Assembly (NCBI GenBank): GCA_016206155.1
Contig: JACQSC010000004.1
Coordinates: forward strand, 7,450-71,449
Source of the DNA: Candidatus Uhrbacteria bacterium
GTDB taxonomy: Bacteria > Patescibacteriota > Patescibacteriia > JACQRZ01
Reading direction: 5' to 3'
DNA: 64,000 nucleotides
Each line of letters begins with the position of its first letter. Position 1 is the stretch's first letter. This document shows positions 5,624 through 44,443 of the stretch, in pieces. Below the pieces are notes generated by a model. That model was given only the letters and a program-made list of their open reading frames with translations. It was not told the origin of the DNA and did not search any database. The position numbers were made by a program, and so were the translations under genes.

Positions 5624-8275
5624 TTATGTCGCAGCGGTCGCGGCGGCAAGTTCTTTTGCGTTTGCAATGATGATCGTTTCATCCTTGGCATCGATTTGGA
5701 CGGTGTCGCCCTCCTTTACGCTGCCATCGACGATCTTGAGCGCAAGTTCATTGAGGATACAGTTTTGGACCGCGCGCTTAAGCGGGCGGGCGCCATAGAG
5801 CGGATCGTAGCCGCGTTTTGCCAGAAAATTGACAAGCGCTTCGGTAAATTCAACGGTGATATCCTGCTTTGTCAGGCGTTCGCGCACCTCTTCAAGCTGA
5901 AGCGCAACGATATGCTGTATCTGTTTTTCCGAGAGGGGATGAAAGATGATGATTTCTGTAATGCGATTGAGAAACTCCGGCTTGAAGTGTTTATGGAGCA
6001 CATCCATGATCTTGTCTCGCATTTCATCTTCATCGATGATCTTTGATGCGCGCTCCCCGGAAGAAAAGCCCAATGACGCCTGGCGTAAAAGATCTCCGCC
6101 AAGATTCGACGTCATGATGATAATGGTGTTCTTAAAGTTCACTTTTCGTCCTTTCGCGTCGGTAATATGTCCGTCGTCAAGAATTTGCAGAAGCACGTTA
6201 AATATCTCGGGATGCGCTTTTTCAATTTCATCAAAGAGGATTACGCTGTAGGGCTTGCGGCGGATTTTTTCCGTAAGCTGTCCGCCTTCATCATAGCCGA
6301 CATAGCCAGGGGGGGAACCGATCAGGCGAGAGACGGAATGCTTCTCGCCAAACTCGCTCATGTCGACGCGAATCAATGCTTGTTCGTCGTTGAACATAAA
6401 CTCCGCAAGACTCTTTGCCAGTTTTGTTTTTCCAACGCCGGTCGGACCGATGAAGAGGAATGAGCCGATGGGCTGCTGCTCTTCGGAAAGTCCTGCGCGC
6501 GATCGGCGCAATGCGTTGGCAACCGCCAGGATTGCTTCCTGTTGTCCGACAACTCGCTGTGAAAGAATGTCCTCTGCAGTTTTGAGCTTTTCAGCCTCGC
6601 TTTGAAGAATTTTCATAGCCGGAATGCCTGTCCATCGCGCAATGACCGCAGCGATCTCTTCCTCGGTAACTTCTTCTTTAAGGAAGCGGTGCTTTCGCTG
6701 AAGCGCGGTGAGGCGCTGCATCGTCTTTTTTAAGTCCTTCTCCATCTGGGGAATGATGACGTGGCGGATCTCCGCGACGCGTTGAATATCGACGCGCCTC
6801 TCGGCAATATCTTCTTCTTGTTTGAGTTTATCTATTTTTTTTCTGATGTCGCGGATTTCGGTAATCAACTCTTTTTCGTTTTTCCAGTCGATCTCGAGCT
6901 TCTGCGCCTGCTCTTTGGTCTCGGCAAGTTCTTTTTCAAGCTCCTTCAGGCGCGCCTTTGCATGTTTATCCGATTCTTTGGAAAGCGCCTGTTTTTCAAT
7001 CTCCAGCTTCAGGATCGTTCGTTTGAGCCGGTCGAGTTCGACGGGTTGGCTGTCGATTTGAAGCCGGATTGCCGATGTCGCTTCATCAATGCAATCAATT
7101 GCCTTATCCGGCAGAAAGCGGTCAGCAATATATCGATGAGAGAGGTGAGTGGCAGCAACAATAGCCGCATCGGTAATACGGACTCCGTGATGAATTTCGT
7201 ATTTTTCCTTGATACCGCGCAGAATGGCGACGGTATCGTCAACCGTCGGCTCGACAACGAGTACGGGCTGGAAGCGGCGCTCAAACGCGGCATCCCGTTC
7301 AATATATTTCTGATATTCCTTCAGCGTCGTCGCGCCGATGGTCCGCAGCTCACCGCGCGCCAGGGCGGGTTTAAGCATATTTGATGCGTCAATTGCGCCT
7401 TCAGCGCCTCCCGCTCCCACTACGGTATGCAGCTCATCGACAAACAGGATCACCTGGCCGTTCTTGCTTGTGATTTCTTTGAGCACCGCTTTAAGGCGAT
7501 CCTCAAAGTCTCCACGGAATTTTGTTCCCGCAACAAGCGACCCCATGTCAAGCGCAAGAATCTCTTTCTCCTTCAGCGATTCGGGGACGTCGCCGGAAAC
7601 AATGCGCTGGGCAAGCCCCTCAACAATGGCGGTTTTTCCAACACCCGCCTCACCGATAAGAACGGGATTATTTTTCGTCCTGCGCGAAAGCACCTGAATG
7701 ACGCGGCGGATTTCCTCATCGCGTCCGATCACGGGATCAAGTTTTTCGTGGCGCGCTTGATCCGTAAGATTCACTGCATATTTACTGAGCGCCTGGTATT
7801 TGCTCTCCGGATCAGGGTCGGTGACTTTTTGCGTTCCGCGTAACTGGGCAAGAATACGCAGGACAGCATCGTAGTCGATTTTATAAAGTTTAAGAATTTT
7901 TTCCGCCGGAGAGGGGGTTTGAATAAGCGCGAGAAAAAGGTGCTCGGTACTGATATACTCATCGCGAATATTTTTCGCCTCTTTCTCTGCTTGATTGAGA
8001 ATTTGCGCGATCTCCTTTGAGATATAGATCTGGGCGGTGCCCCCTCCTGAGACGTAGGGGATAAAGCGAAGCTCTTCCTCGAGCTCCTGTTCAAGGGTTG
8101 TAACAGGTATCTCGAGTTTTTGCAGAAGACCCGAAACAATGCCTTCTTGTTGGCGGACGAGAGAGAGAAGAAGATGGAGCGAGGTGATTTCTTGATGGTT
8201 GCGTTCGGCGGTTAGCTTGTGCGCATGTTGAAGCGCTTCCTGCGCCCGGGTCGTAAAGTTATTATTTTCCGGCAT
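5624..8275 (-). CDS. clpB: ATP-dependent chaperone ClpB
   Basis: Two AAA+ modules ([16 protein letters not shown]), long coiled-coil middle domain, Clp N-domain. Confidence 0.95.
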
Positions 8276-18333: not shown

Positions 18334-18588
18334 ATGTATTATGTGTACATAATCCAAAGTATCAGTACTGGCGGATGGTATATAGGCAGTTCAGGTGATC
18401 CCGCACGAAGACTCTATGAGCATAATAGAGGAACAACGCGTTCGACAAAACCATTCATTCCATATAAACTCATATACACTGAAAAATATTCTACGAAAGA
18501 CGAGGCGTTGAAGCGTGAATTTTTGATAAAAAAATCAGGCAGAATCCGTAAGGAATTAAAAACGAAAATATCCGGCCCTATCGTCTAG
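18334..18588 (+). CDS. GIY-YIG nuclease family protein (UPF0213/YhbQ-like)
   Basis: YYVYIIQS...GWYIGSS...RLYEHN GIY-YIG motif; the 3' end overlaps tRNA-Glu by 15 nt. Confidence 0.8.
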   Translation: MYYVYIIQSISTGGWYIGSSGDPARRLYEHNRGTTRSTKPFIPYKLIYTEKYSTKDEALKREFLIKKSGRIRKELKTKISGPIV

Positions 18589-18648
18589 TGGTTAGGACGA
18601 CAGGTTCTCATCCTGTAAACCGGAGTTCGATTCTCCGTGGGGCTACCA
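18574..18648 (+). tRNA. tRNA-Glu (anticodon CUC)
   Basis: Manual fold: 7-bp acceptor stem (2 G-U pairs), D-loop AGTGGTTAGG, anticodon loop TTCTCAT, T-loop TTCGATT, encoded CCA. Confidence 0.9.
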
Positions 18649-22080: not shown

Positions 22081-22087
22081 TTTTAGT

Positions 22088-22115
22088 CTGGATCCCGGCC
22101 TTCGCCGGGATGACA
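22088..22115. repeat. REP-like hairpin CTGGATCCCGGCCTTCGCCGGGATGACA (copy 1 of 3)
   Basis: Near-identical copies at 29567..29594 (+) and 42701..42728 (reverse complement). Confidence 0.85.
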
Positions 22116-22116
22116 A

Positions 22117-22833
22117 TTACTCTTTGTGATGATAGTGGGCGGCTTCTTTTCCATACAGTTCCGTAAGCGTTTCTGCGGTGAACACATGTTCAGGCTTTCC
22201 ATCGCAGACAAGTTTTTTATTAACGCACAGAACAAGATCGGCAAAATTCGCAACAACATCCAATTCATGAGAAACCATTACGATTGTTGTGTTGTACTCA
22301 CGGTGGAGATACGCGATCAGTTCGTAAAATGTCTGCTCTCCTCCGACATCAACGCCTGAGACCGGCTCGTCAAGAAAAAGCACCGCCGGATCCGAGAGCA
22401 TCGCGCGACAGATAAGCACGCGTTGGAGCTGACCACCCGACAGTGTGCCCAAATGAATATCGGCGCGCCCATCCATATTGAGGCGATGAAGATATTCCAT
22501 AATCTCTGTGCGGCTTCGGCCCGGATGCGACATGTGCAAGATTTCAAAAACAGTGATGGGAAATGTTTTATCAAAGGAAAATCGCTGCGGTACATAACCA
22601 ATCAGCGTCCTGCTCTCCTTTGGCGGTTTGCCTAAGATCAGAACGTTTCCACCAGCCGGTGCGAGCAAACCAATCATTATTTTCAAAAGCGTTGTTTTTC
22701 CCGATCCGTTTGGCCCCACCAGCGCACAGATGCTTCCGTGGGGAATATCAAACGACACTCCTTCAAGCGTCTTCTCGGCGGAGGTATAGGAAAAGGATAG
22801 ATTGTGAACTTCGATGGCGTTGAGCGTCTTCAT
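22117..22833 (-). CDS. znuC: metal ABC transporter ATP-binding protein
   Basis: VGPNGSGKTT, LSGGQLQRV, LFLDEP; start set at MKTLNAIEV. Confidence 0.9.
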   Translation of the reverse strand: MKTLNAIEVHNLSFSYTSAEKTLEGVSFDIPHGSICALVGPNGSGKTTLLKIMIGLLAPAGGNVLILGKPPKESRTLIGYVPQRFSFDKTFPITVFEILHMSHPGRSRTEIMEYLHRLNMDGRADIHLGTLSGGQLQRVLICRAMLSDPAVLFLDEPVSGVDVGGEQTFYELIAYLHREYNTTIVMVSHELDVVANFADLVLCVNKKLVCDGKPEHVFTAETLTELYGKEAAHYHHKE

Positions 22834-25713: not shown

Positions 25714-27619
25714 TAGAAGGGGCGCGCTCATTGCCGCGGCGATGCTCACTCTTGTCTTTATCGGAGGGATTGTTTTTCTTTGGTCATACGATGTGTGGTA
25801 TCAAGGGAAAATCATGCCCGGTGTTATGATGGGCAAGCGAATAGTTGGTTCATATAGCCCAGAATACACCGACGATATGCTCGAAGCGTATAGAGAGCGC
25901 CTCCGCCTCCAGGGCGCAGTATTCTCATTTAAAGGAAAAAACGTAACACTTTATTCAGTTCCCACCACACTCAATGCAGATATTCCAATCCAGACAACGG
26001 ATTACCTTTTTGACATTAACAGCGACGCAACCATTGCATCGCTGATGGCGGTTGGGCGCACCGGCTCGCTCCAACGGCAACACGTTGATCGCATGCGCAG
26101 CGCAATCGCAAAGACCTCAATTGCACCCGTCATCACAATCGACCGACAGCGCGTCATTGATCAACTAAAAAAAGAATTCTCCTTTTTCCATACACCGGCC
26201 ACAAACGCGCGCTTCGCCACTGATGAGAAAGGCGCCATCACAATAACGCCTGAGACTCGCGGCATTGAGTTTGATTACGATAAAGCGCTTGCCTCCCTTG
26301 CCGTTCAACTTTCCTCGCTGGAGCAGCCAACCATTCATCTTGACGAAGGCGCAACACTCCCCGACATCACAACACGGGACCTCGAGAGCGTGCGGAGCGG
26401 TGTCGAGCAGTTGATTGCCGAACCGCTCGAGATTACGTTTGAGAATAAAGAATCCGACCCACCACAAAAGCGCGCGTGGACACTTTCCGGGACACTTTTG
26501 TTGTCATGGGTAAAACCACAGCGGTCATCTGGTGGGCAGGCCGAAATTCAATTTGATCGGGGAGCGATAAGCGACTATCTCAAAGAGAAGATTGCTCCCG
26601 ATGTGCGCGTTGACGTCGTGCATCCTCGATTTGAGATGAAGAATGGCCGTGTTGTCGCATTTGATATTCCGCGTGACGGACGAGAGCTCGACAGCGAGAA
26701 AACAGCTGATGTGATTAGTGCATCGCTGACCGATCGACGTATTTCCGCTCAGATTGTTGTTCGCACAATCCAGTCCCCGTTTCGCCAGAGTGCGGACTCC
26801 GAGCCGGTCATTAAGGAGCTCCTCTCCCGCGCGGAAACAGACTTTTCAGGAAGTTCTAAAAATAGAGTGGCTAACATTGCGCGCGGCGCCGAGCTTATCA
26901 ATGGAATTCTTCTCGCGCCCGGCGAAGAATTCTCAACGAACAAAGCCTTGGGGGATGTTGATGCCGCGCACGGATTTTTTCCCGGATTGGTCATTAAGGG
27001 AACGGAGACCGTGCCGGAATACGGAGGCGGCTTGTGCCAGGTTTCAACAACACTTTTCCGCGCCGTGGCATTTGCCGGACTCGAGGTGCGTGAACGCAGG
27101 AATCACTCATACCGCGTATCATTCTATGAGCCACCCGTAGGGTTTGACGCAACGATTTATGGCACGTCGCCTGACTTTCGATTCAAGAATGATACCCCTT
27201 CGCATCTTCTCATCCAAGCACGAACCGTGGGCAACAAAATGATCGTTGAGTTCTGGGGGAGCAAAGATGGCAGAACGGTTGAAGTGGATACTCCGCGTGT
27301 CTTTAACATAAAAAAAGCCGGCCCGCCGAAACTCATTGAAACCGACGAGCTTGCGCCCGGTGAAAAAAATTGCACAGAAAAAGCACATAACGGCGCCGAT
27401 GCGGTGTTTGAGCGCCGCATTACGTACGCCGACGGAACCACAAAAAAAGAAACCTATAAAAGCCACTATGTTGTGTGGCCGGCGGTCTGCCTGATTGGAA
27501 AAGCAAAGGAAGATCCACCTCCACCTGATTCGAGTGCGCAAGAGAATACATCATCATCCGCTCAAGCTATTTTTTCGGACAGCCAAAAACAAGAATCGGC
27601 GCCAACGCAAGCACCGTGA
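25688..27619 (+). CDS. VanW family protein (membrane-anchored, with N-terminal peptidoglycan-binding-like region)
   Basis: GGGLCQVSTTLFRAVAFAGL...RNHSYRVSFYEPPVGFDATIY VanW core; TM after MNHPSPHRNRRG. Confidence 0.8.
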   Translation: MNHPSPHRNRRGALIAAAMLTLVFIGGIVFLWSYDVWYQGKIMPGVMMGKRIVGSYSPEYTDDMLEAYRERLRLQGAVFSFKGKNVTLYSVPTTLNADIPIQTTDYLFDINSDATIASLMAVGRTGSLQRQHVDRMRSAIAKTSIAPVITIDRQRVIDQLKKEFSFFHTPATNARFATDEKGAITITPETRGIEFDYDKALASLAVQLSSLEQPTIHLDEGATLPDITTRDLESVRSGVEQLIAEPLEITFENKESDPPQKRAWTLSGTLLLSWVKPQRSSGGQAEIQFDRGAISDYLKEKIAPDVRVDVVHPRFEMKNGRVVAFDIPRDGRELDSEKTADVISASLTDRRISAQIVVRTIQSPFRQSADSEPVIKELLSRAETDFSGSSKNRVANIARGAELINGILLAPGEEFSTNKALGDVDAAHGFFPGLVIKGTETVPEYGGGLCQVSTTLFRAVAFAGLEVRERRNHSYRVSFYEPPVGFDATIYGTSPDFRFKNDTPSHLLIQARTVGNKMIVEFWGSKDGRTVEVDTPRVFNIKKAGPPKLIETDELAPGEKNCTEKAHNGADAVFERRITYADGTTKKETYKSHYVVWPAVCLIGKAKEDPPPPDSSAQENTSSSAQAIFSDSQKQESAPTQAP

Positions 27620-27623
27620 AATT

Positions 27624-27656
27624 AAAAAAACGGCTTTGTGGCCGTTTCTTTAATTT
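27624..27656. terminator. putative terminator after the vanW-like gene
   Basis: aaaaacggc-tttgtg-gccgttt stem followed by a T-rich run. Confidence 0.5.
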
Positions 27657-28075
27657 CAGACAGAAACCTGCAGACAAGAAAATGTACTATTCGCATATTC
27701 GAGCCAAAGGCCCAAATGACGGATACCACATCCCCATGCTTGTCGTGTCTGCAGAGTTCTGTCTGAAACTGTCTGTAAAGAACGCACATGTAACGTGTAG
27801 CCGACAGTCTACCACAGCCACGGATCTTGTCAAGAGTGGTAGGTGTCCCATTTTAGTGTTCACGTCAATTTTCCTTATGGTTAAAGAAAAATGCCTCTTT
27901 CTATTCATCAGTTCAATAAGCAAGTGCACCACTTAGGGGTTCGATGTTTCCGCGGTACACTCCGTGGATATGGCATACACACACCATTCCCAAGACGAGC
28001 GCGAGAACGCTCAATCGCGTCAGCGCTTCCGGAACCCATCGCTCCGTATAACGCACCGAAGGAAAAACCAAAAAT

Positions 28076-28378
28076 TCAAGTGTTTGAAGGTGAGGATGGA
28101 ATGAAGCTCTTGTACAAGGAGCTCTGTGAATCACTGAACAATATTGAAAGTGAAGAAATCATCAAAACATACCACGCGCTTTTTGGCAATACGGAAATTG
28201 TTGCACCCGAATCAATAATAAAACGGAGAATAATAGGTTCGCCCTCTTTTGTGATCATGGTGACTTTAACCGCCGGGAATAGTGAAGCGTGTCCGGAATC
28301 AAAGAACGATATTCCGTAGGGGAAAACGATTGGCATAGTATAGTACCGACAACGAACGTGGAACGATAAGAAATTCAA
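28076..28378 (-). CDS. retropepsin-like (clan AA) aspartyl protease domain protein
   Basis: FIIDSGATISVLPKS D-S-G-A active-site motif with hydrophobic context. Confidence 0.5.
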   Translation of the reverse strand: MNFLSFHVRCRYYTMPIVFPYGISFFDSGHASLFPAVKVTMITKEGEPIILRFIIDSGATISVLPKSAWYVLMISSLSILFSDSQSSLYKSFIPSSPSNT

Positions 28379-28577
28379 CGTCGTGCAATGATCGCTCGGG
28401 GCGCGTTTGCCTCACCTTGAATATTACCTCCTCAAGGTTTTCTCCCTGAGCGACGACTTCGCCGTCTAGAAGAGCGACCTGTTTGCCACCGTATTTTTCA
28501 ATATCGATTGCGGGAATAGATGCCTTGGTCATAGTTCCTAAAGTATACGGCATCATCAAGGCAATGTTAAAAATCAC
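28299..28577 (-). CDS. small protein, DUF5678-like, partner of the aspartyl protease
   Basis: IEKYGGKQVALLDGEVVAQGENLEEV pattern recalled from DUF5678-type proteins; overlaps the protease ORF. Confidence 0.45.
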   Translation of the reverse strand: MIFNIALMMPYTLGTMTKASIPAIDIEKYGGKQVALLDGEVVAQGENLEEVIFKVRQTRPERSLHDVEFLIVPRSLSVLYYANRFPLRNIVL

Positions 28578-29557
28578 TTCGCAATGTGCGCGGGGGTTTT
28601 GCCGGAAAGGACGTCGAGGATGTTTTGTGCTGCGAGTCGCGCCATCGCATCACGACTGCGGCGGGTTGCCGATGCGATGTGCGGCGTCATGATCACTGAA
28701 TCAAGCTTTTTGAGTTCATACTGATCGGTCGGATCACAGTCAATCTCCGGCTCGCACTCAAAAACATCAAGTGCGTACCCACCGAGTTTTTTTGCGTAGA
28801 GCGCTTTCAGCACAGCCTTCTCATCAACAATCGGCCCGCGAGCGGTGTTGATAAGAAGCGCTGTTTTTTTCATCAGACGAAGGGCCTTTGTTGAAATTAA
28901 GTGGCGGGTTGAAGGAAGAAGTGGTACATGAAGGCTGACAATATCGGATTGCTTCAAGAGCTTTTCTTGCGTCGCGTATTTCACGCCGGACTCACTCTCA
29001 AACGCGAGATCACGGTGAAGATCATAATAGAGCACAGTCGCACCAAACCCAAGGCGCGCGCGCTTAACGACTTCTTTGCCAATACGGCCCATACCAAGAA
29101 GACCGACTGTCTTGTCGTAGAAATCCTGCCCGATAAGAAGGTCGGGGTCCCACCCCATATATTTTCCTGCGCGCGCAAAGCGGTCGGCTTCAACAATACG
29201 GCGCGAAAGCGCAAGCATCAGGGTAAAGGTATGTTCGGCAACCGAGATACTTATTTCTTCCGACGGCGTATTGGTCACGGCGATCTTCTTTTTTTTTGCC
29301 CCTTCAAGGTCAATATTATCAAAGCCAACGGCATAGTTTGAAAGCACCTTCAATTGCGGCCCTGCCGCATCCATAACATCGGCGTCTATTTTATTCGTAA
29401 GGAGACAAAGAATCGCATCATACTTCTTGTCTTTCACTTTTGCAATCATCTCCTTTTTAGAAAGATTCCTGCGCTCCTGCTGAAGCGTCACCGTATGCTT
29501 TTTTTTCAGCATATCAATGCCAATTTTTGGGATGGGACGGGTGATGAAAATTTTCAT
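28574..29557 (-). CDS. D-isomer-specific 2-hydroxyacid dehydrogenase (glyoxylate/hydroxypyruvate reductase-like)
   Basis: GLLGMGRIGKEV NAD-binding motif and catalytic R/E/H context; start set at MKIFITRP. Confidence 0.85.
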   Translation of the reverse strand: MKIFITRPIPKIGIDMLKKKHTVTLQQERRNLSKKEMIAKVKDKKYDAILCLLTNKIDADVMDAAGPQLKVLSNYAVGFDNIDLEGAKKKKIAVTNTPSEEISISVAEHTFTLMLALSRRIVEADRFARAGKYMGWDPDLLIGQDFYDKTVGLLGMGRIGKEVVKRARLGFGATVLYYDLHRDLAFESESGVKYATQEKLLKQSDIVSLHVPLLPSTRHLISTKALRLMKKTALLINTARGPIVDEKAVLKALYAKKLGGYALDVFECEPEIDCDPTDQYELKKLDSVIMTPHIASATRRSRDAMARLAAQNILDVLSGKTPAHIAK

Positions 29558-29566
29558 ATAGGTACA

Positions 29567-29594
29567 TTTTTTATGACTGGATCCCGGCCTTCGC
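29567..29594. repeat. REP-like hairpin CTGGATCCCGGCCTTCGCCGGGATGACA (copy 2)
   Basis: Identical to 22088..22115 except the flanks. Confidence 0.85.
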
Positions 29595-29608
29595 CGGGAT
29601 GACATTCA

Positions 29609-30529
29609 CTATTGATTCCTAAAAAGTTTAATTTTTTGCAACGCTACTTCTTTCACGAGATCATACGCTTCGGCGAGAATTTTTCGCTCGTCGGTATAGC
29701 GGGTATGCTCAAGAAGTGCACGGCGCATACCGGCAACAAACGCAAGGCGCAGGTCGGTGCCGACATTGACCTTATTGATGCCAAGACGAATGGCCTTTCG
29801 CACCGCAGCATCGGATACACCGCGTGCACCGTCGGTTCGAACGCAGTCGTGCACAATGTCGCATTGATTGTGCGCGATACGCAGGAGCTTTGACGGGATC
29901 CCGCTTGCGCCATGGAGCACCAGGGGCATGCGCGTTCGCTCTTTTATCTCCGCCAACCGTTTGAAATCAAGACGAACTCCGTCTTTTGCCTTGAAGGGGC
30001 CATGCGCCGTTCCAATGGATATCGCAAGCGAATCAATGCCGGTGCGCTTCACAAAATCAACGGCTTTGTCCGGGTCGGTAAAATGTACACTCCCTTCTTT
30101 GGTCAAATCTTCGTCTACTCCTAATGCCCCTAACTCTGCTTCAACAGAAATACCGCGTTTCTTTGCCCACCCGACAATCATTTTTGTTTTTTTAACATTC
30201 TCTTCGTACGGCAAATCAGAACCATCAAACATCACAGAGGTCCATCCCCCGTCAATACACCGCTTAATAAGATCAAGGTCCTTCCCATGATCCAGATGGA
30301 GTGCTAATGGCGCCTTTCCTTCCGCGGCAAGATATATCAGTGCGCGGAGATTGCGAAACCCCGCATACTCAAGCGAGCTTTCGCTCGTTGCGATAATAAT
30401 TGGCGAGCGTGTACTTTCCGCCGCGGACACCACTGCCTGCAGCATCTCAAGATTGTCGACATTAAACGCAGGCACCGCATAGTGCCCGCGATGAGCTTTT
30501 TGCAAAAGTTCTTTTGACGTTACAAGCAT
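29609..30529 (-). CDS. fba: class II fructose-bisphosphate aldolase
   Basis: AVPAFNV, HLDHG, metal-binding His pattern. Confidence 0.9.
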   Translation of the reverse strand: MLVTSKELLQKAHRGHYAVPAFNVDNLEMLQAVVSAAESTRSPIIIATSESSLEYAGFRNLRALIYLAAEGKAPLALHLDHGKDLDLIKRCIDGGWTSVMFDGSDLPYEENVKKTKMIVGWAKKRGISVEAELGALGVDEDLTKEGSVHFTDPDKAVDFVKRTGIDSLAISIGTAHGPFKAKDGVRLDFKRLAEIKERTRMPLVLHGASGIPSKLLRIAHNQCDIVHDCVRTDGARGVSDAAVRKAIRLGINKVNVGTDLRLAFVAGMRRALLEHTRYTDERKILAEAYDLVKEVALQKIKLFRNQ

Positions 30530-32692: not shown

Positions 32693-32766
32693 TGGAGCGG
32701 GTAAGGGGAGTCGGACCCCTCGCTTCTCGTTGGCAACGAGATATATTACCGCTATACGATACCCGC
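32693..32766 (-). tRNA. tRNA-Gly (anticodon GCC)
   Basis: Manual fold of the reverse complement: acceptor GCGGGTA/TACCCGC, anticodon loop TTGCCAA, T-stem AGGGG/CCCCT with unusual T-loop TCCGACT, encoded CCA. Confidence 0.85.
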
Positions 32767-42693: not shown

Positions 42694-42700
42694 TACTGTT

Positions 42701-42728
42701 TGTCATCCCGGCGGAGGCCGGGATCCAG
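42701..42728. repeat. REP-like hairpin (copy 3, reverse-complement orientation)
   Basis: tgtcatcccggcggaggccgggatccag. Confidence 0.85.
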
Positions 42729-42737
42729 CCCAAATAT

Positions 42738-44361: not shown

Positions 44362-44443
44362 GCCCGGGTGGTGTAACTGGCAGCCACGTTCGACTTAAGA
44401 TCGAATGCCGTAAGGCGTGCGGGTTCGAGTCCCGCCCCGGGCA
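44362..44443 (+). tRNA. tRNA-Leu (anticodon UAA), type II with long variable arm, no encoded CCA
   Basis: Manual fold: acceptor GCCCGGG/CCCGGGC, 3-bp D-stem, anticodon loop CTTAAGA, variable hairpin GCCG-TAA-GGC, T-loop TTCGAGT. Confidence 0.9.

Follow-up and report, generated by a model that had tools for sequence, protein, structure and literature searches.

Probable remains of a DUF5678-protease module beside a predicted small RNA gene in a Candidatus Uhrbacteria genome

We analysed 64,000 nucleotides of contig JACQSC010000004.1 from a Candidatus Uhrbacteria metagenome-assembled genome (MAG; this whole stretch is hereafter called the window) and in it a minus-strand locus where a gene for a small DUF5678 protein is overlapped at its 3' end by an open reading frame (ORF) that starts like a retropepsin-like aspartic protease. 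Judged by its homology, this second ORF is a truncated pseudogene and should encode no functional protease. Our explanation for the locus as a whole, which we hold to be probable, is that an accessory block (a DUF5678 gene, a retropepsin-like protease gene and a convergent gene for a TrmB-family regulator) would have been inserted between a 2-hydroxyacid dehydrogenase gene and a separate small RNA (sRNA) gene, and would then have decayed in the window to an intact DUF5678 gene of 77 amino acids (aa), a 53-codon protease stump that retains its DSG motif, and a mosaic ORF on the plus strand. The anatomy of the locus we regard as firm. An earlier, sequence-only reading had proposed a two-gene module next to a gene-poor stretch, and the two minus-strand ORFs on which it was based are indeed present (28299..28577, 92 aa, and 28076..28378, 100 aa, with FIIDSGATISVLP). 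What it observed is partly confirmed and what it concluded is partly supported: the pairing of DUF5678 with a protease that it put forward holds as a family-level rule, with an intact overlapping protease ORF of 151-163 aa in 8 of 12 distinct loci, but the window itself has no functional module, protease codons 54-151 having been lost.

The features that concern the decayed block are these:

28178..28336, minus strand: 5' relic, codons 1-53, of a retropepsin-like protease gene, overlapping the 3' end of the DUF5678 gene by 38 nt (tblastn to P0001)
28205..28213, minus strand: codons of the catalytic motif D-S-G, relic residues 42-44 (read from the sequence)
28076..28177, minus strand: non-homologous tail of the relic ORF, antisense of TrmB fragments (no similarity to P0001 or the L012 protease past residue 53)
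28299..28532, minus strand: intact DUF5678 gene, 77 aa (Pfam PF18929, relatives, substitution rates)
28542..28570, minus strand: promoter-like site TTAACA-17-TATACT directly before the DUF5678 start (by consensus only)
27975..28142, plus strand: TrmB-family regulator relic, block 1, equivalent to residues 68-130 of the L001 protein (tblastn, 42/63 identical, E=2e-18)
28143..28184, plus strand: TrmB-family regulator relic, block 2, equivalent to residues 228-241 (tblastn, 12/14 identical; in frame, abutting block 1 and collinear with it)
27891..28319, plus strand: mosaic ORF of 142 aa, consisting of a novel start, the TrmB blocks and the antisense of the protease relic (tblastn; called by gene callers as 131 aa)

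The only database homologue of the protease ORF is P0001, a protein of 151 aa encoded on a 2.3-kb contig (L001) where a DUF5678 gene is followed by the P0001 gene and then by a convergent TrmB-family gene. Relic residues 1-53 are identical to P0001 at 42 of 53 positions (79%; tblastn, window 28336..28178). The last 33 residues of the ORF (54-86) are the antisense reading of a TrmB-gene fragment and have no similarity to any relative. A second locus, L012, is 81.5% identical to the window, free of gaps, from 28535 down to 28179, where homology ends and L012 goes on into an intact protease of at least 144 aa. In DNA alignments L001 1-397 corresponds to window 28596-28200 and L001 1132-1273 to window 28143-28000, so that between the aligned blocks ~730 bp of L001 face ~56 bp of the window. 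Since the window ceases to match L001 and L012 at 28178/28179, and the match picks up again within the TrmB gene, we read the protease ORF as a deletion stump.

How much of a protease is left? The sequence-only reading had assigned the ORF to the clan-AA aspartic proteases, which fits the active site: DSGA at relic residues 42-45 (28202-28213) lines up with the DSGA that is invariant in the family and with the DTGA of feline immunodeficiency virus (FIV) protease, so that the catalytic D-T/S-G-A motif of clan AA is present. It does not fit the remainder, as the complete single-lobe fold is missing from a sequence whose homology ends at residue 53. The lost codons 54-151 hold 18 of the 31 invariant positions of the family (D54 to E125), and the relic is without the flap region, the L110-G111-R112-x-G114 motif and the C-terminal strands for dimerisation. 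Profile searches of both ORFs, suggested as a check by the sequence-only reading, gave a divided result: the DUF5678 ORF passes its cut-off, but the relic ORF scores 15.9 bits with Asp_protease_2 (PF13650), across profile positions 6-29 only, where 24.3 bits are required. Altogether it matches three clan-AA Pfam models weakly, all below cut-off and in the active-site loop only.

On the far side of the break lie the two TrmB blocks, of which block 2 has its far end at the junction with the protease relic; in blastn, L001 1132-1273 and window 28143-28000 are 73.6% identical. Missing from the window are protease codons 54-151, the intergenic spacer, the 3' end of the regulator gene, regulator residues 131-227 and the N-terminal winged helix of the regulator. 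Compared with the intact reference L001, protease codons 54-151 and the regulator 3' end together account for ~380 bp, a figure that is approximate given that L001 is ~74% identical. The mosaic ORF that spans these remains resembles TrmB regulators (PF01978) in its two collinear blocks, 67% and 86% identical to the L001 protein, but lacks both residues 131-227 and the winged-helix DNA-binding domain (PF01978 covers residues 7-74 of the L001 protein), so that functionally it is no member of that family. It matches nothing in Pfam or NCBIfam and is probably not functional, going by its composition. Whether this ORF has homologues had been posed as a check by the sequence-only reading; a homologue exists, the TrmB-family regulator, but what is conserved is a gene fragment only.

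The DUF5678 gene is intact. Its Pfam assignment, already suggested in the sequence-only reading, is borne out by PF18929 (gathering cut-off 23.2), against which the 92-aa ORF scores 29.8 bits and the 77-aa protein 30.4 bits. The longer, GTG-initiated ORF is an over-extension of the 77-aa coding sequence, the true start being the ATG at 28532, where all homologues begin and where NCBI protein HY623_02225 (Candidatus Uhrbacteria MAG, 100% identical to the 77-aa protein) begins too. The protein is 69-81% identical to three relatives of equal length, and for deep pairs the ratio of non-synonymous to synonymous substitution rates (dN/dS) is 0.10-0.20 over codons 1-64, outside the overlap, which indicates that the gene is evolving under purifying selection. 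The TATACT box of the putative promoter is also found in L001 in the alignment.

A wider survey places the window copy in its family. Searching with a profile made from five DUF5678 proteins brought in 44 relatives, all of which (44/44), like the window protein, score above the PF18929 cut-off and are small stand-alone proteins. An exhaustive hidden Markov model (HMM) search of 1.84 billion cluster representatives returned 138 matches at E<=1e-3 and 26 at E<=1e-10, nearly all of them stand-alone proteins of 45-120 aa, and a scan of GTDB genomes with the DUF5678 profile found one locus only (L013); the family is small and rare. We surveyed the context of 12 distinct DUF5678 proteins or loci. 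An intact protease ORF of the length given above lies downstream in eight of them (L001, L012, L013, L016, L017/18, L019, L020-25 and L026), with the consensus MP.S.VFPYGI...IIDSGA.ISALPKSDA...PRVLGR.GIF..F.IVFEE. Three hold protease relics, namely the window (cut at codon 53), L002 (cut at ~codon 23) and L027/28 (DSG half deleted), and one, L014, has no protease. The two genes overlap by 8 nt in the canonical arrangement and by 38 nt in the window's clade (intact loci L001, L012, L013 and L016-L026). Intact loci thus show what is expected of type II toxin-antitoxin (TA) systems, two adjacent, co-oriented and overlapping small genes, of which the second is truncated in the window. In L027/L028 (3001-3394) the DUF5678 protein is shortened to 54 aa and an ORF of 64-94 aa retains the C-terminal half of the protease (...PVIFVEHSEVPRIMGREGIFSRFGIIFDE...).

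Intact relatives of the relic, in contrast to the window copy, pass the Pfam cut-offs for both Asp_protease_2 (P0001 34.4 bits, L012 29.4 bits) and gag-asp_proteas (P0001 31.1 bits). The family profile aligns DSGA and LGR.G with DTGA and LGRD of FIV protease (E=1e-3) and matches DDI1 and Rickettsia ApRick weakly. We compared the family with solved clan-AA examples (FIV/HIV protease, the RVP domain of DDI1, and Rickettsia APRc, i.e. ApRick, PDB 5C9B/5C9D). Like clan-AA retropepsins, the intact proteases of the candidate phyla radiation (CPR) are single-lobe proteins of ~150 aa with D-S-G-A followed by LGR.G, both aligned with the retroviral enzyme; unlike the other members, the window copy keeps the first 53 residues only. 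Homodimers are the expected form of aspartic proteases in clan AA; APRc is membrane-anchored and DDI1 has ubiquitin-like domains. The intact CPR proteases have no extra Pfam domain and always follow DUF5678. Against NCBIfam TIGR02281 and TIGR03698 even the intact P0001 scores only 19.3 and 18.2 bits (cut-offs ~57), and its only match in PADLOC-DB 2.0, to a candidate model that is uncharacterised, has 12.4 bits (E=0.03). IMG/VR viral contigs yielded no relatives of the protease, and the module proteins have no match in PHROGs. Going by these gene neighbourhoods, the DUF5678-protease pairing is real at the level of the family, and it is not described in the literature that we searched.

Neighbours of the module often belong to toxin-antitoxin or mobile elements: HepT/MNT, PemK, IS200-type Y1 transposase, GIY-YIG and bAvd genes. 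The commonest DUF5678 allele, P0007 (128 blocks of the collection), occurs in L020-L023, JGI groundwater-type contigs, within an island that comprises a GIY-YIG gene, an IS200-type Y1 transposase gene and 1-2 MNT/HepT-like pairs, arranged differently in different contigs. In L002 the protease stump is followed by a HepT/MNT pair. This locus is close to L001 (DUF5678 dS 0.15), and at 6007-7809 the HepT/MNT pair replaces the protease and TrmB genes. Its MNT gene is called as an ORF of 391 aa, whose N-terminal half resembles the zinc-ribbon (zf_Tbcl-like) protein encoded downstream of the TrmB gene in L001. The site between the DUF5678 gene and the sRNA gene is a rearrangement hot spot.

Could the window nevertheless hold an intact module, its 100-aa ORF being a small free-standing retropepsin-like protease? 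The ORF is open, begins at the conserved MPIVFPYGI N-terminus, keeps DSG, is coupled to DUF5678 and shows the weak clan-AA matches mentioned above. These matches, however, stay below cut-off and reach no further than the active-site loop, residues 54-86 are unlike any relative, the invariant positions beyond D54 are gone, and both the sole database homologue and every other intact downstream protease found measure 151-163 aa. As the homology break contradicts it outright, we rate this possibility as very improbable indeed. Somewhat less remote, yet still improbable, is the idea that the plus-strand ORF is a real gene for a shortened TrmB-like protein and the protease ORF merely its shadow. Gene callers do report the plus-strand ORF on six independent contigs, on five of them at its full length of 131 aa, and its centre is 67% identical to a TrmB-family protein. 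But the winged helix that defines TrmB is absent, residues 131-227 are skipped, no family is matched, and the last 45 residues are the antisense of the protease relic, on whose strand the conservation lies (the 79% aa identity to P0001). To the suspicion that the truncation is an artefact of assembly or binning, through a chimeric join or collapsed reads, we give next to no weight. The source is a MAG and the junction does join two genes tail-to-tail, but nine contigs, each assembled independently from its own sequencing run, match sections of 27389-29664 at 99.9-100% identity, and the junction lies within at least seven of them. Because independent assemblies agree on it, we take the deletion junction to be real.

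The neighbourhood of the locus bears on how the block arrived. In L040 and L041 the dehydrogenase gene is directly followed by the sRNA gene, so the DUF5678/protease/TrmB block appears to be an insertion specific to the window's clade. The sRNA gene accounts for the remainder of what the sequence-only reading had called gene-poor (27620-28076): there are no intact protein genes in this interval, but it contains the gene relics described above and, by prediction, a separate, conserved and structured sRNA gene with its own promoter and its own terminator:

27806..27833, minus strand: predicted sRNA promoter TTGACA-16-TG-TAGACT with extended -10 (consensus; conserved upstream in 12 other loci)
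27624..27799, minus strand: predicted sRNA transcript of ~176 nt, consisting of a variable leader, a conserved 118-nt hairpin, an A-rich linker and a terminator (folding)
27652..27770, minus strand: conserved hairpin domain, its lower stem being the inverted repeat (covariance model R1, 119 bits)
27617..27658, unstranded: hairpin terminator with T/A runs on both sides, common to the sRNA (minus strand) and the convergent VanW-like gene (plus strand); 18-nt arms, 94% complementary

An inverted repeat noticed near 27657-27764 exists but is larger than first described, with 29-nt arms at 27654-27682 and 27740-27768 that are 86% complementary. It does not mark the module as a mobile element, being the lower stem of the conserved sRNA, which is unrelated to the module. 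On the minus strand the segment folds into a long hairpin plus terminator with a minimum free energy of -81 kcal/mol (z -8.1). The stop codon of the VanW-like gene (27617-27619) lies inside the terminator stem, which is flanked by an A-run and, on its opposite side, by a T-run.

Further loci were retrieved with an exact 20-mer from the core, which gave 15 metagenome contigs, 13 of them with the full element; two 20-mer matches, L037 and L042, are due to chance and are not matched by the covariance model. Each of the 13 loci has a promoter TTGACA/G-N17-TGnTAnnnT, a variable leader, the hairpin and an intrinsic terminator. Where the contig is long enough synteny is constant, with pfkB, fba, in some loci the 2-hydroxyacid dehydrogenase gene, and then the RNA, which is convergent with the VanW-like gene and an ORF of 137-168 aa that, from its sequence, we take to be an Hsp20-like small heat-shock gene. 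Flanking proteins are only distantly similar to those of the window (VanW 37-67%, Fba 58-69% identical). Between L002 and the window identity is 74.6% over the syntenic DNA that reaches from the glycosyltransferase gene as far as the DUF5678 gene, most of it coding, and 81.9% over window 27666-27886, with a nearly identical core. Immediately upstream of the sRNA promoter, 27834-27890 (L002 7700-7830; ACGTGAACACTAAAATG.GACAC) is likewise conserved between the window and L002, though the loci further removed do not share it. Possible explanations are a shared divergent promoter and the 5' end of a former neighbour gene.

Within the hairpin, a 10-nt internal loop on the 5' side, CGACAAGCAU, is invariant in 13/13 sequences, as is the helix GGGGAUGU / ...UUUUC with three invariant G-U pairs; the stem CUG.AGACA / UGUC..CAG is also seen in all 13, its variable positions co-varying (C-G to G-C). 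RNAalifold predicts 44 pairs, 21 of which have compensatory double changes. On the named structure 91.8% of alignment cells are paired, compared with 79.0% in shuffles (0/500 reach the observed value) and 38-48% in slid-partner controls; double-change cells number 73 against 27 in shuffles (again 0/500). Compensatory changes therefore exceed the controls, as expected of a structured RNA. An alternative partner for the GACAAG of the loop would be CUUGUC in the 3' arm, which suggests two possible pairing registers; both segments are invariant and hence beyond the reach of covariation. Tentatively, we take the invariant internal loop to be the working part of the sRNA, a putative recognition site for protein or RNA. 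A search of the window for the complement of the loop, as a possible trans-target, returned the self-match only. A 16-codon ORF inside the sRNA (MGMWYPSFGPLARICE) was considered and rejected, as relatives have frame-breaking indels and early stops.

By the R1 covariance model the window contains a single copy (27652-27770, minus strand, 119 bits, E=2e-24; the plus strand scores 37 bits) and the other DUF5678 loci contain none, for which reason we do not count the sRNA as part of the module. At gathering score, Rfam 15 yields three transfer RNAs (tRNAs) only for the window: tRNA-Glu(CTC) at 18574-18648, tRNA-Gly(GCC) at 32693-32766 and tRNA-Leu(TAA) at 44362-44443, the sole Rfam/ARAGORN matches in the 64 kb. 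Relaxing the threshold to E<=10 for 27550-28250 and four other loci brings up only scattered matches, of which nearly all fall on that end of the sRNA which holds the terminator. The 20-mer has no copy in IMG/VR viral contigs, and our literature search on 6S or structured RNAs in CPR bacteria found nothing relevant. To our knowledge, very few regulatory RNAs have been described in these bacteria. In organisation the element resembles 6S RNA (RF00013) and the 4.5S RNA of the signal recognition particle (SRP; RF00169): a single-copy, stand-alone gene with strong promoter and intrinsic terminator, syntenic across distant genomes, whose product is predicted to fold into a long, irregular hairpin (~118 nt) in which a conserved internal loop separates the lower stem from the upper one. 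Unlike the central bubble of 6S RNA, this loop is strongly asymmetric (10 nt versus 1 nt); unlike SRP RNA, the apex is variable, with no conserved GNRA-type loop or SRP domain-IV-like motif in the alignment.

A long imperfect palindrome between convergent genes in a rearranging region might instead be an element that acts as DNA, such as a miniature inverted-repeat transposable element, a repetitive extragenic palindromic (REP)-like sequence, a recombination site or a bidirectional terminator. If so, we would not expect it to be confined to a single copy in the window, with no further copy in the other loci searched, nor to score so much higher on one strand than on the other, nor to have invariant G-U pairs in its helices. 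The conserved sigma-70 promoter upstream, the separate terminator downstream and the fixed syntenic position across genomes whose proteins are as little as 37-67% identical argue in the same direction, and we consider a DNA-level element very improbable compared with the predicted sRNA gene. Some points nevertheless weigh against our account of the locus. With its reading frame still open over 86-100 aa, the protease relic might be translated. Pairwise dN/dS mostly records time before the deletion and does not prove that DUF5678 is still needed on its own. The TrmB deletions are defined by one full-length reference (L001, 74% identical), from which the ancestor may have differed, so that their number and size are approximate. 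As for the sRNA, a prediction from sequence and structure, retrieval by exact 20-mer inflates the apparent invariance of that stretch.

What might the module do where it is intact? An AlphaFold2 (AF2) model of DUF5678 built from 44 sequences (predicted local distance difference test, pLDDT, 77.5) has a small alpha/beta core (H11-14, E18-22, E25-30, H33-43, E53-56) followed by a C-terminal tail of low confidence (mean pLDDT 58 for residues 61-70 and 41 for 71-77), in which V57, P58, L61, V63 and Y65 are nearly invariant. The PF18929 model covers residues 12-42 only, and the CPR subfamily has this extra conserved tail (VP.xLSVIYYA) outside it; in the window's clade the protein has ten more residues because the canonical stop codon was lost. 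As the canonical overlap is only 8 nt, dual coding cannot account for the conservation of the tail in canonical members. On the strength of the predicted core, the low-confidence yet near-invariant tail and the low dN/dS, we propose tentatively, as a reading that is plausible but falls short of probable, that DUF5678 is a protein devoted to binding the protease; in the simplest case it would serve as an inhibitor or antitoxin, with its tail folding onto the enzyme. Intact copies of the translationally coupled genes would then encode a cytoplasmic homodimeric aspartic protease together with its dedicated partner, the disordered hydrophobic tail docking on the enzyme, probably in the substrate cleft or at the dimer interface, and repeated loss of the protease with retention of DUF5678 would be the usual decay route of a toxin-antitoxin-like pair.

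Several traits of the family recall type II TA systems: a small upstream gene overlaps a larger downstream enzyme gene, the distribution is patchy and insertion-like, and the pair sits among HepT/MNT, PemK and transposase genes. As with orphan antitoxins, the downstream gene is repeatedly lost and the upstream one kept, the tally being three independent protease truncations (window, L002, L027/28) plus the protease-less L014. Unlike type II antitoxins, DUF5678 has no DNA-binding fold in fold searches (ribbon-helix-helix, helix-turn-helix, AbrB or similar), and it has no match in PADLOC-DB 2.0. We know of no aspartic protease among described toxins, and a literature search for retropepsin-like toxins found nothing relevant; no function for DUF5678 was found in the literature searched, where the one paper that names the family has no bearing on it.

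A different arrangement, in which intact modules are expressed as a gag-pro-like fusion through programmed frameshifting, or in which DUF5678 is a substrate or pro-peptide of the protease and not its inhibitor, is unlikely in our estimation, if less so than the rivals weighed above. The genes always overlap (8 nt canonically, 38 nt in the window's clade), and both the DUF5678 tail (IYY) and the protease N-terminus (VFPY) resemble aspartic-protease cleavage sites. The canonical overlap, however, is ordinary ATG..TAA coupling, the protease lies in frame +1 relative to DUF5678 and not -1, and there is no conserved slippery heptamer, on which grounds we reject the frameshift fusion; DUF5678 may still be a substrate. 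Returning to the inhibitor or antitoxin role, a bolder joint proposal, which we regard as doubtful, would make the DUF5678-protease pair a new class of TA-like or inhibitor-controlled protease module with the window as an orphan-antitoxin end state, and the adjacent 118-nt RNA a new housekeeping class in CPR bacteria of the Uhrbacteria kind. If this were true, the effector would be a cytoplasmic homodimeric aspartic protease restrained by the disordered DUF5678 tail, in a class known from Patescibacteria-type genomes and metagenomes only, and the hairpin RNA would be a functional analogue of 6S RNA or another ribonucleoprotein scaffold, with the loop CGACAAGCAU and the three invariant G-U pairs as its recognition site.

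Kinship of DUF5678 with phosphoribosyltransferases was also considered. Among the hints are the resemblance of VAIVDGKIVASGKTL to a loop that binds phosphoribosyl pyrophosphate, the name "orotate phosphoribosyltransferase-like" given by JGI to one member, weak matches of 3/44 members to Pribosyltran, and PDB matches at E 0.46-3. The resemblance is probably spurious, as the AF2 model has a beta-hairpin at VAIVDGKIVASGKTL and fold searches give no phosphoribosyltransferase.

For annotation, these results imply that the "free-standing retropepsin" of the window should be marked as a pseudogene and that the plus-strand ORF of 131-142 aa should be treated as a mosaic of relics. More generally, a DUF5678 gene in a CPR bacterium is as a rule coupled to the gene for a conserved retropepsin-like protease of ~152 aa, and the pair behaves as a mobile, decay-prone accessory module, which provides a testable hypothesis both for DUF5678 and for a class of aspartic proteases that is little understood in bacteria. 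The predicted sRNA, unannotated and with no Rfam model, is conserved in sequence, structure and position, and its alignment and covariance model are ready for wider searches.

Elsewhere in the window, a short hairpin element, TGTCATCCCGGCGAAGGCCGGGATCCAG, occurs three times, at 29574-29608 (minus strand), 22085-22119 (minus strand) and 42697-42731 (plus strand). It has an 8-bp stem, ATCCCGGC/GCCGGGAT, with the loop GAAG, and may be a REP-like repeat or a site of RNA processing or attenuation. The copy at 29574-29608 is located between the genes for the aldolase and the dehydrogenase. As listed from ATG 29605 (MSSRRRPGSS...), the 2-hydroxyacid dehydrogenase ORF runs at its start through this hairpin repeat (29558-29605, minus strand); homologues align only from residue 16-17 (MKIFITRPIP), so that the true start is probably ATG 29557.

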